A DNA stretch of 64,000 nt from Candidatus Nomurabacteria bacterium (GTDB taxonomy: Bacteria > Patescibacteriota > Minisyncoccia > Phycocordibacterales > UBA918). Each line of letters starts with the position of its first letter. Position 1 is the first letter of the stretch. Below the pieces are notes generated by a model. That model worked only from the letters and a program-made list of their open reading frames with translations, was not told the origin of the DNA and ran no database searches. The position numbers and the translations under genes are program-made. Positions 43,653 through 46,741 of the stretch are shown here, in pieces. The stretch spans positions 75,388 through 139,387 of the forward strand of contig CP060229.1 of the NCBI GenBank assembly GCA_023898585.1. The letters run 5' to 3'.

Positions 43653-43832
43653 AGATAATGAAGTATAGCATCCACTGCACTTTGTTATCTAACAAAAATA
43701 GTTTTGGGTACTACTAGCGCGCTCACAGCTGACCCTGGAACTAAAATCGCATCCAAGGAATTATACCTTTGAAAGGTACCCCTTTCTTAAGACAACTTTT
43801 GCAAGTATTATCACTTAAACAATACAAGCAAT

Positions 43833-44108
43833 ATGTCCAAGAAAGGATACAAGATCTCAGCTGAGATAAAAGCCGAAGTTATCAATAAAATCAAACACGA
43901 AGGCTTGAGTGTTAGTGATACTGCCAACCAATACGGCATCAGTAGTCGAACCATTTATGATTGGCTAGGTACAAAGGCCACGGGTACGGTCAGTCTCCTT
44001 GAACACAACAAACTCAAGAAGGAAAACGAACAACTCAAACAAATCATCGGTGACCTCACCATAAAAATGTCCATTGAGGCTAAAAAGGGGCTCTCCAAGG
44101 GATGGTGA
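43833..44108 (+). CDS. IS3-family transposase OrfA (HTH + leucine zipper)
   Basis: HTH (LSVSDTANQYGISSRTIYDWL) and heptad Leu repeats. Confidence 0.75.
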   Translation: MSKKGYKISAEIKAEVINKIKHEGLSVSDTANQYGISSRTIYDWLGTKATGTVSLLEHNKLKKENEQLKQIIGDLTIKMSIEAKKGLSKGW

Positions 44109-44878
44109 TCGGTTATTCACGTACGCATCACTATTATCACCATAAACAACCTCAAAAGGATTGGCACACCAAGCAACTGATTGAGGCTGTGTTACGTGAG
44201 CACCCAGGCTATGGCCACAAGCGCTTGGCCACACACCTCAAGATCAACAAGAAACGAGTGCTGAGAGTTATGAAGTTGTTTGGTATTAAACCATACCGGA
44301 GAACTACTCCTAAAGTGTTTAAAAAGCCTAAAGGTAGTGTGTTTCCCAACTATTTAATGAGTGAGGAACCACGAGGGCCAGGTGATATATATGCCTCAGA
44401 CTTCACCTATCTTAAATATCGAGGAAAGTGGTTGTATGTGGCTACAGTACTCGATACGTACACTAGAGAGATAGTTGGTGTATCGATATTGACAACACAT
44501 CAGACACAGCTCGTCATTAACGCTTTGGCTTCAGCAGTGCTCCATCGAGCTCCTCCACGGATTATTCATTCCGATCAAGGGAGTGAGTACTGCTCAAAAG
44601 ACTACACTGCCTTAACCCAAAAGCTTGGTATCAAACAGTCCATGAGTGCCCCCGGTTGTCCCTGGGAGAATGGTTACCAAGAGAGTTTCTATAAAGGGTT
44701 CAAATTGGACTTAGGTGACCCAAACCGGTTTGATACTCTCGGTGAGTTAGTGGCTACTATTTATCAGACGATTAATTATTACAATCAAAAACGCATCCAC
44801 TCCGTCTTAAAAGTACCACCTCGGTTGTTTAGAGACCAACATGAGGTATTATTAAAAGACTTGCAAAAGGTGTCTTAA
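44102..44878 (+). CDS. IS3-family transposase OrfB (DDE integrase core, rve)
   Basis: IIHSDQGSEYCSKDY ... CPWENGYQESFYKGFK (DDE with conserved E region). Confidence 0.8.
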   Translation: MVIGYSRTHHYYHHKQPQKDWHTKQLIEAVLREHPGYGHKRLATHLKINKKRVLRVMKLFGIKPYRRTTPKVFKKPKGSVFPNYLMSEEPRGPGDIYASDFTYLKYRGKWLYVATVLDTYTREIVGVSILTTHQTQLVINALASAVLHRAPPRIIHSDQGSEYCSKDYTALTQKLGIKQSMSAPGCPWENGYQESFYKGFKLDLGDPNRFDTLGELVATIYQTINYYNQKRIHSVLKVPPRLFRDQHEVLLKDLQKVS

Positions 44879-45035
44879 TTTTGGGGTATCTTCCACACTC
44901 TCGCGGATATTTTGTTCGTTCTGCGAACTCCAAAATATCTCGCTCCATCGACCCCCACTCGGCGGCTCGCCTCCTTCGCTTCGCTACGGAGTCGGCTTCG
45001 CGCCGCCTCGGTTCAAGTCCCGTTTGGCGGAAAAT

Positions 45036-45077
45036 AGTAAGACCCCGGCCTATCCAGGCCAGGGTCTAACTATTTTT
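45036..45077 (-). terminator. rho-independent terminator after tRNA-Asp
   Basis: RNA hairpin UAGACCCUGGCC-UGGAUA-GGCCGGGGUCUUA followed by CUAUUUUCC. Confidence 0.55.
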
Positions 45078-45078
45078 G

Positions 45079-45400
45079 CGCGCCAGACGGGACTTGAACC
45101 CGCAACCTCCCGCGTGCACTGTATCCAAACTTTCGCTGTGGTGTGGACTATATCTTTACCGTGCCAAGTGTCACATTATGACGCTTGATTTAGGTACCCC
45201 GGTATCTAGTCTCTACGGAGCCCTATAACCATGTGTTTTTGCGTTATAGGTTCCCTCGGTATTCGCATATCTTCACCTTGTTTTTAAACAAAGTCTCAAA
45301 CTTAGCCTTCACCGATATCCCGGAATTTTTCAGTTCGCCTTTCGAACGAAAAGCTGCACGTCTACAGGCGGGTGCTCTAACCAAATTGAGCTACCAGCGC
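45079..45400 (-). tRNA. tRNA-Asp(GTC) interrupted by a group I intron in the anticodon loop
   Basis: exon 1 45400..45364 GCGCTGGTAGCTCAATTTGGTTAGAGCACCCGCCTGT; exon 2 45116..45079 CACGCGGGAGGTTGCGGGTTCAAGTCCCGTCTGGCGCG; spliced loop CUGUCAC, G73 discriminator. Confidence 0.7.
45117..45363 (-). other. group I intron (247 nt) within tRNA-Asp
   Basis: P1 with U:G at 5' splice site (exon CUGU pairs intron GCAG), S element AAGAUAUAGUCC, R-like GUAGAGACUAGA, terminal omega-G (…ACAGUG|CAC). Confidence 0.7.
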
Positions 45401-45401
45401 A

Positions 45402-46067
45402 TTAACGCTCGCGCGTTTTTATGAAATTGTCGAAACGAACCTTCTTTCTTTTCAGATGAAGCTTCGAGCACCTATTATACATAGTATTCGCCAATTGCAA
45501 AGCTCCGATGGTACTGAACTGCAAACGTGAGAAGTTTCCTTTACCTGAAGTGAACACACACCCACCTCTGACGCCAGCCTCGTTGAGTAACTTTTTCAAG
45601 TCAACTAAGAAAGACTGACACCCACTAGTAAAGGTAACTTGTAACACTGGGGTAGGACAGGGTCGCTTCTTGTTAACGTAACCAATCCACACATTACCAT
45701 CACCATCAAAATATCCTCGAACAAAATCGCCAAGAAATTGTTTAGGAATATCTGGTAAGGATAAACGTTTAGACTTTCCGGGACAAAAACCAAGCTGTAG
45801 CAAATCATAATAAATTTCTTTACTGCCAATTTGTAAACGGTAGACTGAACCTGAATCAGAAACACGCTTAGACACAACATGGTTGGAACACATTATCTTA
45901 CGAATGGATAAAATTATGTCTCTGTCAGCGGAATGAAGAGCCAAAAAATGCGTATTCCGTTTAGTCTGCACCATATTGCCGTCAGCAGCGAAGAAACCTA
46001 GTACATAGGCCATATCCGCAGACCAACGTTTGAAAAAGTCTGTATTTACCATTCGCTGAATTGGCAT
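45402..46067 (-). CDS. LAGLIDADG homing endonuclease (double-motif, free-standing)
   Basis: two LAGLIDADG motifs: YVLGFFAADGNM and FVRGYFDGDGNV; stop codon 1 nt before tRNA-Asp 5' end. Confidence 0.8.
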   Translation of the reverse strand: MPIQRMVNTDFFKRWSADMAYVLGFFAADGNMVQTKRNTHFLALHSADRDIILSIRKIMCSNHVVSKRVSDSGSVYRLQIGSKEIYYDLLQLGFCPGKSKRLSLPDIPKQFLGDFVRGYFDGDGNVWIGYVNKKRPCPTPVLQVTFTSGCQSFLVDLKKLLNEAGVRGGCVFTSGKGNFSRLQFSTIGALQLANTMYNRCSKLHLKRKKVRFDNFIKTRER

Positions 46068-46190
46068 ACTTAAATAATACCATATGACAGGATATTATAC
46101 TAACCATTTTTAGAGAATAAAGAAGAATCAATAAAATTAAACGATTTGATTGCTCTGTAAGGCTGTTTATAAGTAGCTAGCCACTTAAAA

Positions 46191-46409
46191 TTATATAGCC
46201 ACCAGCAATAGAGTAGTGACGACTAAGCTGTGCACCAAAAGCGCTTTATTAATTACCGCGGTAAGATCTGATTTTAGCTCGCGTAAGTCTTGCTTGGAAG
46301 CTAATTCAATTTCAACCCCAGTCATGTCTCTATCGATAGTAAAAGTATTCATGTATCGTAGTATGACATCTTCAAAAGGATTTTTATAAACTAGACAATC
46401 TGTACTCAT
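46191..46409 (-). CDS. hypothetical small membrane protein
   Basis: 72-aa ORF with C-terminal TM. Confidence 0.25.
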   Translation of the reverse strand: MSTDCLVYKNPFEDVILRYMNTFTIDRDMTGVEIELASKQDLRELKSDLTAVINKALLVHSLVVTTLLLVAI

Positions 46410-46606
46410 CTCTGCTTCTGCAAAAACCGATACACCATCAACGGTGCCCAGATCAGGAAACTAGCAAACCCGATAATAAAGAAAGTTGGGATAAATTTAG
46501 AAAGCGTTGTTTCTTGAAACGACTCTACCCAAAGACACATCAAAGTAATACTTGCGCACAGTAGCATAGCCACCCAAAACGTTCTCAAAGCAATTTTTTC
46601 AGTCAT
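46406..46606 (-). CDS. hypothetical small membrane protein
   Basis: 66-aa ORF, two predicted TM helices, overlapping stop/start with the downstream ORF. Confidence 0.25.
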   Translation of the reverse strand: MTEKIALRTFWVAMLLCASITLMCLWVESFQETTLSKFIPTFFIIGFASFLIWAPLMVYRFLQKQR

Positions 46607-46667
46607 TACTTACTGTAACCAAGATTAACCTGTAAAAGTTGTTTTCGAGATCATAAGTGTAAAATTG

Positions 46668-46741
46668 TGTCGACGGGAGGGAACGATCCTCCGACCTTAG
46701 CTTTATGAGTGCTACGCTCTAACCAACTGAGCTACGTCGAC
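46668..46741 (-). tRNA. tRNA-Met(CAT) (elongator Met or Ile2-lysidine type)
   Basis: reverse complement GTCGACGTAGCTCAGTTGGTTAGAGCGTAGCACTCATAAAGCTAAGGTCGGAGGATCGTTCCCTCCCGTCGACA. Confidence 0.75.

Follow-up and report, generated by a model that had tools for sequence, protein, structure and literature searches.

How does a gene for a homing endonuclease come to lie one nucleotide (nt) ahead of a transfer RNA (tRNA) gene that is itself interrupted by an intron, and does the one element have anything to do with the other? The question is raised by a locus in a 64,000-nt stretch of a Candidatus Nomurabacteria genome (Patescibacteriota; assembly GCA_023898585.1, contig CP060229.1, positions 75,388 to 139,387), here called the window; all coordinates are positions within it, and the features of the locus lie on its minus strand (-). 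As far as the anatomy is concerned, we are very confident that the locus consists of two separate genetic elements, one within the tRNA-Asp(GUC) gene of this Patescibacteria genome and one adjoining it. The gene order is tRNA-Met, an open reading frame (ORF) for a LAGLIDADG endonuclease and tRNA-Asp, with a group I intron 37 nt inside tRNA-Asp from its 5' end. The ORF and the tRNA gene are interlocked: in most genomes the ORF borrows its stop codon from the tRNA, and in the window and most other loci a promoter-like site is embedded in the ORF.

The tRNA-Asp(GUC) gene is divided into a 5' exon (45364..45400, -), which comprises tRNA positions 1-35 and ends with the anticodon bases G34 and U35, and a 3' exon (45079..45116, -), which runs from C36 to the discriminator base G73 and does not encode the CCA end. 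The gene is absent from a default ARAGORN run without intron search, which lists eight tRNAs in the window. With introns allowed, a check proposed in the first-pass annotation of this DNA, ARAGORN recovers tRNA-Asp(gtc) (45078..45400, -) and places a 247-nt intron between ..CCTGT and CACGC... Once spliced, the tRNA folds as a regular 76-nt cloverleaf whose anticodon loop is CUGUCAC; it carries G10, C38 and G73, the aspartate identity set of Escherichia coli. In forty intron-less orthologues of the same type from related genomes, the sequence over the junction is ..C(C/T)TGTCAC.., which fixes the splice site at 35/36 and excludes a tRNA-Ala(UGC) spliced at 33/34. For the latter, G3:C70 is not the alanine identity pair either, and the alternative P1 helix would have no U-G wobble. 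The two-exon tRNA-Asp with its CUGUCAC loop and G73, as first annotated, is confirmed by these results. Neither a further tRNA-Asp (ARAGORN) nor a second copy of the intron (nhmmer) was found in the 64-kb window.

A subset of the related tRNA-Asp genes (loci L011, L032, L033, L035, L039, L041, L055, L058, L062, L063, L067 and L071) combines a short D-loop, AACGGTAGAGC, with an unusual T-arm, GTGGGGTCAGCACCCAT, that lacks the usual GTTCRA T-loop.

The 247-nt insert at 35/36 (45117..45363, -) is a genuine group I intron, which we conclude from the covariation and the invariant core of its homologues. At the Rfam gathering threshold no intron is listed. A permissive local search of 481 nt with Intron_gpI (RF00028), the model against which the first-pass annotation had suggested testing the insert, gave a full-model match at 45124..45389 (-) with an expectation value (E) of 3.5e-7; its score of 34.4 bits stays below the gathering score of 50. 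We collected 34 full-length homologous introns from the same tRNA position in related genomes. All 35 sequences, the window's included, agree without exception in the exon end CUGU, in the guide GCAG and its U-G wobble, in both P7 strands (GACUA/UAGUC) and in the terminal G. P1 (45354..45367, -) is formed by exon CUGU and intron base A1 (45367-45363) with the internal guide UGCAG (45358-45354); it places the U35-G wobble at the 5' splice site, and the adjacent A1-U pair is replaced by C-G in four sequences. In the catalytic core (45146..45211, -), the P7 strands GACUA (45211-45207) and UAGUC (45150-45146) enclose P3' (45202-45197) and P8 (45196-45193 / 45160-45157), and the intron ends with the omega-G at 45117.

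We aligned the 31 main-type introns with MAFFT, drew helices P1-P9, including the P3/P7 pseudoknot, by hand on this alignment and counted the pairs. Of the cells assigned to helices, 96% are paired, compared with 37-42% when the 3' partners are slid by one to three columns. Compensatory changes occur in 34 of the 61 pairs (five of six in P3 and three of four in P8, with P7 invariant), and none of 500 shuffles reached any of the five measures. GAAA loops cap P2 and P9. P5 (45265..45306, -) carries GCUAAG / UAUGC, a putative 11-nt GAAA-tetraloop receptor by its likeness to the known receptor motif CCUAAG/UAUGG. A P10 pairing of the 3' exon CAC with GUG overlaps P1 and is not conserved in the homologues, and was left out of the structure. 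Several details of the first-pass annotation agree with this structure: the last exon U pairs with a G of the guide (CUGU/GCAG), the S and R-like elements are the two P7 strands (UAGUC and GACUA), a terminal G precedes the 3' exon, and the insert, with 247 nt and no ORF, is too small to encode a protein.

Four loci (L017, L019, L031 and L050) carry a divergent intron subtype at the same tRNA-Asp site. It differs in the P4-P6 region and has an additional hairpin domain between P7 and P3' (alignment columns ~200-230); its first base is C, pairing as C-G in P1, in three of the four and A in L050, the base of the main type.

Introns of this kind have been described before. A group I intron at 35/36 of tRNA-Asp or tRNA-Asn has been published as a hallmark of the Patescibacteria (PMC13011429; preprint 10.1101/2025.07.03.662931). 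These introns are classified as subgroup IA (PMC13011429), and one Microgenomatia tRNA-Asp 35/36 intron, from GCA_001029755.1, was found to self-splice precisely in vitro (Nakagawa et al., mSystems 2026, PMC13011429). The window intron is only ~52% identical to the spliced one and 79% identical to a Paceibacteria tRNA-Asp intron, GCA_023898525.1, in the supplement of the same paper; a third published tRNA-Asp intron is that of GCA_030583725.1. The remark in the first-pass annotation that tRNA-Asp is an unusual host has therefore to be withdrawn for Patescibacteria. According to the published work, such split genes are overlooked or wrongly assigned by standard tools, RF00028 misses some Patescibacteria tRNA introns and the split gene is the sole tRNA-Asp copy in the survey; the authors conclude that the tRNA introns of Patescibacteria are mostly without homing endonuclease genes, and hence little transferred (PMC13011429). 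As the split tRNA-Asp escapes default tRNA finders and the Rfam gathering score, completeness estimates of these genomes are affected. The tRNA-Asn(GUU) 35/36 introns of Paceibacteria, for example that of GCA_030583765.1, have the core strings gggataacggtgaag, cgccgtagagactagatacc and gaagatatagtccacgcc in common with the tRNA-Asp intron, and those in the supplement also have the CUGU exon end (PMC13011429); by sequence, a single intron family seems to occupy both tRNA-Asp and tRNA-Asn genes. A LAGLIDADG gene beside tRNA-Asp is mentioned neither in PMC13011429 nor in the tFind preprint (Williams 2020) or the paper on rRNA insertions of the candidate phyla radiation (CPR; PMC11270868). The window intron is one more member of a published class, and the interlock of endonuclease and tRNA genes appears, as far as the searchable literature shows, to be undescribed.

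The ORF (45402..46067, -) encodes a free-standing, monomeric LAGLIDADG endonuclease of 221 amino acids (aa). It matches Pfam LAGLIDADG_3 (PF14528) with an E of 4.5e-11 (43.3 bits, against a cut-off of 22.5) and has 2239 database relatives. In the AlphaFold (AF2) model, whose predicted local distance difference test (pLDDT) score is 92, the chain folds into the two alpha-beta-beta-alpha-beta-beta-alpha halves expected of a monomeric enzyme of the LAGLIDADG family. Its nearest solved structures by Foldseek are I-Tsp061I, I-AniI, E-DreI, the bI3 maturase, I-SmaMI and I-DmoI, of which I-Tsp061I (2DCH) is the closest (E 1.6e-8). The first motif, YVLGFFAADG (45978..46007, -), holds the catalytic residue D29 and the second, FVRGYFDGDG (45696..45725, -), holds D123; both residues are invariant in 77 of 77 orthologues, 39 of them beside intron-bearing and 38 beside intron-less tRNA-Asp genes. 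In ten ORF pairs, the ratio of nonsynonymous to synonymous substitution rates (dN/dS) is 0.05-0.18, at a dS above 1, where synonymous sites are saturated. Judged by these substitutions, the intact ORF is clearly functional and under purifying selection. The first-pass annotation was right about the double-motif ORF that ends 1 nt before tRNA-Asp on the same strand. It had also given the ORF a promoter-like region of its own, of which we find only a TATAAT (46094..46099, -), 27 nt upstream of the ORF start; no -35 element was accepted by the scan, and this hexamer is the sole promoter-like element for the ORF in the window.

What is the ORF linked to? A scan of one genome per species yielded at least 503 loci that encode relatives, and we examined the best 80, all from Patescibacteria. 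Every one of the 80 has the ORF immediately ahead of the 5' end of tRNA-Asp(GUC), and in most a tRNA-Met(CAU) precedes the ORF by 30-300 nt; in the window this conserved synteny partner is at 46667..46741 (-; ARAGORN and related loci). The intron is far less constant: 40 of the 80 loci have none, 34 have a complete intron, five contigs end just past the intron start and one ends within the ORF. Since half of the ORF loci are intron-less, the conserved linkage is that of the ORF with tRNA-Asp, not with the intron. The first-pass annotation had considered that the endonuclease might have left its intron; the ~145 related introns measured are 194-344 nt long, and the ORF occupies the 5' flank in 80 of 80 loci, 40 of them without an intron, so this proposal finds no support.

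The linkage extends to the reading frame itself. In 41 of the 67 loci with a tRNA placed by ARAGORN, the stop codon of the ORF is U8-A9-G10 of the tRNA, giving an overlap of exactly 10 nt. The ORF ends inside the tRNA in 58 of these 67 loci, the remaining sites being TAG triplets deeper in the D-arm, and TAG is the stop codon of 72 of 79 ORFs. The window is an exception, with a TAA of its own 1 nt ahead of G1 of the tRNA. Its ORF ends ..ACGCGCGAGCGTTAAT before tRNA-Asp (45401-45416, -), and the extra ~16 nt may be a small duplication of the tRNA 5' end, given a loose likeness (GCGCGAG vs GCGCTGG). Where the stop codon is within the tRNA, cleavage by RNase P at G1 would strip the ORF messenger of its stop codon and could thereby hold the enzyme at a low level.

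A similar head-to-tail arrangement is seen with a different tRNA in a very large phage contig (427 kb; IMG/VR), where a distant LAGLIDADG homologue (L340:3001-3710) ends exactly at the start of tRNA-Trp, which is followed by tRNA-Ala. ARAGORN also calls other intron-bearing tRNAs in related loci, namely Thr(GGU), His(GUG), Leu(CAA), Arg(GCG) and Met(CAU) (loci with such calls are L006, L008, L012, L014, L033, L055-L057, L061, L063, L066, L067, L077 and L080). The Tyr(GUA) call in L012 is a mis-assigned tRNA-Asp, and some of the other assignments are perhaps boundary errors of the kind reported in PMC13011429.

A second sample was drawn from the intron side. With a metagenome search pattern made of the intron 3' core and the CACG exon start only, and so blind to the ORF, we obtained 120 intron-bearing tRNA-Asp loci, among them some from the Hainich groundwater series, 78 of which have at least 750 nt of upstream sequence and were scored for the ORF. 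It is full-length and abuts the tRNA in 54 loci, is degenerate in eight (truncated, frameshifted or internally deleted) and is missing from 16, where tRNA-Met usually lies 50-260 nt upstream. Intact, decayed and lost copies at one and the same site are the pattern of a homing-gene life cycle, and the decay and loss of the ORF argue against an essential host function. A generic tRNA-Asp pattern run on viral contigs returned ordinary tRNA-Asp genes without ORF or intron and was too unspecific to serve as a base rate for the ORF.

Most of the loci that have lost the ORF have not lost all of it. At least ten of the 16 retain, ahead of tRNA-Asp, a spacer that is 75-89% homologous to the last ~95-130 nt of intact ORFs. 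The seven aligned remnants start at CTTTGAAATT..ATGTATAAT, just upstream of CTTTGAAATTATA.GATTTTATGTATAAT, and their shared motif consists of a -35 element TTGAAA (or TTTGAA), a spacer of 15-16 nt and a perfect TATAAT. A strict motif of the TTGAAA-N15-TATAAT type is found in 12 of the 16 ORF-less loci, and in most loci the -10 element is located 58-75 nt upstream of position 1 of tRNA-Asp. Where the ORF is intact, these bases are the codons for A-L-K-L-Y-x-F-M-Y-N, the last core helix of the enzyme (residues 186-197 in the AF2 model). The corresponding site of the window, TTTGCA-16-TATAAT (45501..45474, -; codons A189-N198), matches at ten of 12 positions and is the best promoter-like match that the scan returned for the region; its TATAAT stands 73 nt ahead of G1 of tRNA-Asp.

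We used the codons of 118 non-identical ORFs to tell constraint on the protein from constraint on the DNA. Tyr197 is encoded by TAT in 115 ORFs and by TAC in three (background TAT 0.76), and Asn198 by AAT in 97 and by AAC in none (background AAT 0.76). TTG makes up 75 of the 97 leucine codons at position 190 (background 0.21), and at Lys191 there are 64 AAA codons, with AAG outside the eight commonest codons (background AAA 0.70). Tyr193, which falls in the spacer, is encoded by TAT in 52 and by TAC in 41 ORFs (background TAT 0.76). Identity among synonymous codons is 0.73 at residues 191-200, compared with ~0.42 over the rest of the ORF. A general constraint on the DNA of the whole last 100 nt is rejected, as synonymous conservation is limited to residues 191-200 and the final codon. 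In phage homologues, which are at most 38% identical and not located beside tRNA-Asp, Tyr197 is kept, residue 198 is mostly Lys or Thr and position 190 has no TTG; since the hexamers are absent from these homologues, they are a derived feature of the tRNA-Asp-linked clade.

Given that the remnants keep the motif and that synonymous codons are frozen at the same place, we propose that the promoter of tRNA-Asp lies inside the endonuclease gene, as it appears to do from sequence. The tRNA would then be transcribed from within the ORF with a leader of ~65 nt, and deletion of the ORF would be tolerated only up to the promoter. Once a sole tRNA-Asp gene depended on the embedded promoter, the last 100 nt of the element would have become undeletable. 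The interlock would thus be a case of a selfish gene that makes part of itself indispensable, while an invariant part of the tRNA lends it a stop codon. The features that appear to be new are absent from the first-pass annotation: the linkage of ORF and tRNA, which extends over hundreds of species, the stop codon that the tRNA usually supplies, and the proposed tRNA promoter within the ORF.

Does the enzyme also move the intron? We examined the association in both samples, the ORF-bearing genome loci and the intron-bearing metagenome loci. The ORF or a remnant of it is found in 74 of the 78 scored metagenome loci. On the ORF tree, which is poorly resolved, the intron state is unclustered (25 Fitch changes, compared with 26 ± 2.4 after shuffling), several neighbouring tips differ in intron state, and nearly identical introns stand beside ORFs that are 30-50% diverged in protein sequence. 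The tRNA alleles themselves differ in the D-arm, which is canonical in 34 of 35 intron-bearing alleles but in only seven of the 40 intron-less alleles beside intact ORFs. A 1-nt insertion, GGTTAG(T/C)AGC, occurs in eight of these 40 alleles and once in 120 generic tRNA-Asp matches; it is seen on at least five acceptor-stem backgrounds that also occur as canonical intron-bearing alleles, and the association of D-arm and intron persists within acceptor-stem groups. Such a pattern is expected of an enzyme that recognised the tRNA gene, with immunity conferred by either the intron or changes in the D-loop.

We judge the chances to be about even that the enzyme and the intron are coupled by co-conversion after a nearby break, which would make an intron without an endonuclease gene of its own mobile. 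The narrower proposal of true collaborative homing, that the enzyme recognises the tRNA-Asp gene from about the D-arm to the anticodon loop and that carriers are protected by the 35/36 intron or by D-loop indels and substitutions, is more tentative, and on the sequence evidence we would call it possible but doubtful.

Several observations weigh against the coupling, the recognition of the tRNA gene or the embedded promoter. Half of the ORF loci (40 of 80) are intron-less even though both catalytic residues are intact. Canonical intron-less alleles with a short D-loop stand beside intact ORFs in loci L035, L041, L062 and L067, and the exons of L067 are identical to those of its intron-bearing neighbour on the ORF tree, L063; in such loci, an enzyme directed at the insertion site would cleave the chromosome that encodes it. 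The D-arm insertion is also found in two of ~105 intron-bearing metagenome alleles. The ORF was more similar than its flanks in none of the 73 pairs with alignable flanks and thus bears no direct mark of having been transferred horizontally in recent times; its body is in all cases the segment that has diverged most. The D-arm and other associations possibly reflect host phylogeny. As for the promoter, its spacing of 15-16 nt is shorter than the E. coli optimum.

In the pairs L001/L300 and L245/L300 we noticed a mosaic, with flanks 80-90% and ORF bodies 55-70% identical and a block from ~100 nt upstream of tRNA-Asp through the intron that is 93-100% identical. For L001 and L300 the values are 83% in the flanks, 65% in the ORF body, 90% in the last 100 nt and 95% in the intron. 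The sharp switch at the embedded promoter could be a recombination junction or could result from allelic replacement of the ORF body.

The alternative that survives best is that the two elements are independent co-residents, selfish or neutral and unrelated to each other, at the tRNA-Asp locus of one large clade, the endonuclease homing only into the tRNA-Met/tRNA-Asp spacer and the intron spreading or persisting by other routes, such as vertical descent, reverse splicing (GCAG/CUGU) or exchange with tRNA-Asn introns. The intron-less half of the ORF loci, with canonical intron-less alleles adjoining intact ORFs, favours this explanation, as do the 16 of 78 intron loci that are ORF-less, four of them without even a remnant. 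ORF and intron distances are only weakly correlated (Mantel r = 0.20), and the tRNA-Asn introns with the same core and CUGU end fit a guide-directed spread. Independence is nevertheless hard to reconcile with the presence, now or in the past, of the ORF in 74 of 78 intron loci. The intron flips between close ORF relatives indicate frequent gain and loss, which is hard to obtain without a nearby double-strand break, and the D-arm variants of the intron-less, ORF-bearing alleles would be left unexplained. We consider independent co-residence a serious but rather unlikely explanation.

A domesticated host protein, either a maturase for group I introns or a nuclease with another target, its site being kept for the sake of the tRNA-Asp promoter, is improbable. 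The strong purifying selection described above would suit such a protein, and so would the fixed position in at least 80 species-level genomes (with at least 503 relatives), the lack of any trace of recent transfer, the maturases I-AniI and bI3 among the structural neighbours and the other intron-bearing tRNAs in related loci (Thr, His, Leu, Tyr, Arg and Met). Yet the gene is lost or broken in 24 of 78 lineages, and both catalytic aspartates, which a pure maturase does not need, are invariant. Half of the ORF loci have no tRNA-Asp intron, and a tRNA-Asp 35/36 intron self-splices in vitro free of protein (PMC13011429).

That the endonuclease gene was once inside the intron and later moved to the 5' flank is very unlikely. 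The adjacency, 37 nt from the insertion site, is all that the locus itself offers for it, together with the general observation that LAGLIDADG genes are common in group I introns, including those of CPR rRNA (PMC11270868) and cyanobacterial tRNA-Arg. The related introns are too short for an ORF, the same flank is occupied in the 40 intron-less loci, fusion of the ORF to the tRNA 5' end and its possession of the tRNA promoter point to long residence there, and the published pathway is the opposite one, from a free-standing gene into an intron (collaborative-homing literature). Least credible of all is that the split gene is a pseudogene backed by a functional intron-less tRNA-Asp elsewhere in the genome, for although only 64 kb of that genome are visible here, the exons are intact and of the type of functional-looking orthologues, the core of the intron is kept in full, compensatory changes included, the window contains no other tRNA-Asp and the split gene is the sole copy in the published survey (PMC13011429).

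The explanation that we prefer, with mobilisation of the intron by the endonuclease as its least certain part, can be put together as follows. The intron RNA would fold into P1-P9, and an external guanosine would attack after U35 at the U-G wobble of P1, held by the guide GCAG. The omega-G (45117) would then direct exon ligation to give a normal tRNA-Asp, whose 5' leader would be trimmed by RNase P and whose CCA would be added enzymatically. The LAGLIDADG gene has long occupied the tRNA-Met/tRNA-Asp spacer across a large group of Patescibacteria. A sigma-70-type promoter in the codons of its last core helix (L-K-..-M-Y-N) would drive tRNA-Asp, and decay of the ORF would have to spare the last ~100 nt. 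The enzyme may cut DNA in or beside an unprotected tRNA-Asp allele, and repair from the ORF-bearing copy may co-convert the ORF and the intron 37 nt away, by homing in trans or collaborative homing.

The surroundings of the locus contain a few further features. An intrinsic-terminator-like hairpin with a T-run (45040..45067, -) was found by scan 11 nt past tRNA-Asp. Beyond it, between tRNA-Asp and an insertion sequence (IS), a 20-nt inverted copy (95%) of the 3' part of the tRNA-Asp T-arm/acceptor (45081-45100) occurs at 45010-45029 (+); it has no tRNA fold and could have been left by a rearrangement or belong to a long bidirectional terminator structure. The IS is an IS3-type element at 43770-44895 (+), ~185 nt downstream of the tRNA-Asp 3' end, with 40-nt terminal inverted repeats (43770-43809 / 44856-44895) that are 80% complementary. 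It comprises a helix-turn-helix orfA (43833-44108) and an rve-integrase orfB (44102-44878), which overlaps orfA in a different frame. On the other side, between tRNA-Met and the LAGLIDADG gene, two small hydrophobic ORFs (72 and 66 aa; 46191-46606, -) have no Pfam match. They look like an extra insertion specific to the window genome, the gap being ~30-300 nt in most relatives.

If the enzyme does recognise the tRNA-Asp gene and its carriers are protected in the way proposed, the locus would be an instance of collaborative homing in a bacterial chromosome, with the endonuclease gene, the intron and the tRNA promoter as one interlocked unit. It would explain both the spread of the "endonuclease-less" tRNA introns of Patescibacteria and the recurring odd D-arm variants. 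In any case, most intron-bearing loci have an endonuclease gene, under purifying selection and with both catalytic residues intact, at a distance of 37 nt from the insertion site. Its presence changes the published view of these introns as nearly immobile for want of endonuclease genes, and mobilisation of the tRNA-Asp intron in trans becomes directly testable.

How does this locus compare with known systems? The introns of Nakagawa et al. (PMC13011429; tFind classes) share with it the phylum, the tRNA, the insertion site, the U-1/omega-G pair of splice-site bases, the CUGU/GCAG pairing and the absence of an internal ORF; their published account has no LAGLIDADG gene abutting tRNA-Asp, which the window does have. 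I-Tsp061I, I-DmoI and the CPR rRNA-insertion enzymes (PMC11270868) have the same two-motif fold of ~200-220 aa with an aspartate ending each helix, but they are encoded inside the intron that they mobilise, whereas the window gene is free-standing, fused to the 5' end of a tRNA and holds the putative promoter of that tRNA. The LAGLIDADG maturases I-AniI and yeast bI3 are of similar fold, and the window enzyme likewise belongs to genomes rich in group I introns. However, the maturases are intron-encoded and bI3 is without catalytic residues, whereas both aspartates are invariant in the family of the window enzyme and its intron type splices protein-free in vitro. Endonucleases of tRNA introns, such as LAGLIDADG PF03161 in cyanobacterial tRNA-Arg(CCU) and HNH in Patescibacteria tRNA-Asn, are likewise tied to a tRNA group I intron, but their genes lie inside introns of more than 500 nt, whereas the window gene is outside a 247-nt intron and upstream of the tRNA.

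The closest parallels in organisation are F-CphI with the psbA intron of cyanophage S-PM2 (PMC6083498) and T4 mobE with the defunct I-TevIII intron (PMC2790892). These are Endo VII-like or HNH enzymes of phage protein-coding genes with demonstrated cleavage, whereas the window combines a LAGLIDADG enzyme, a bacterial chromosome and a tRNA gene, and the ORF-bearing loci of its type are intron-less in half of all cases. All three nevertheless have a free-standing endonuclease gene beside a gene whose group I intron lacks a working endonuclease, and in the two phage systems a break near the insertion site would co-convert both elements, as we propose for the tRNA-Asp locus of the window.

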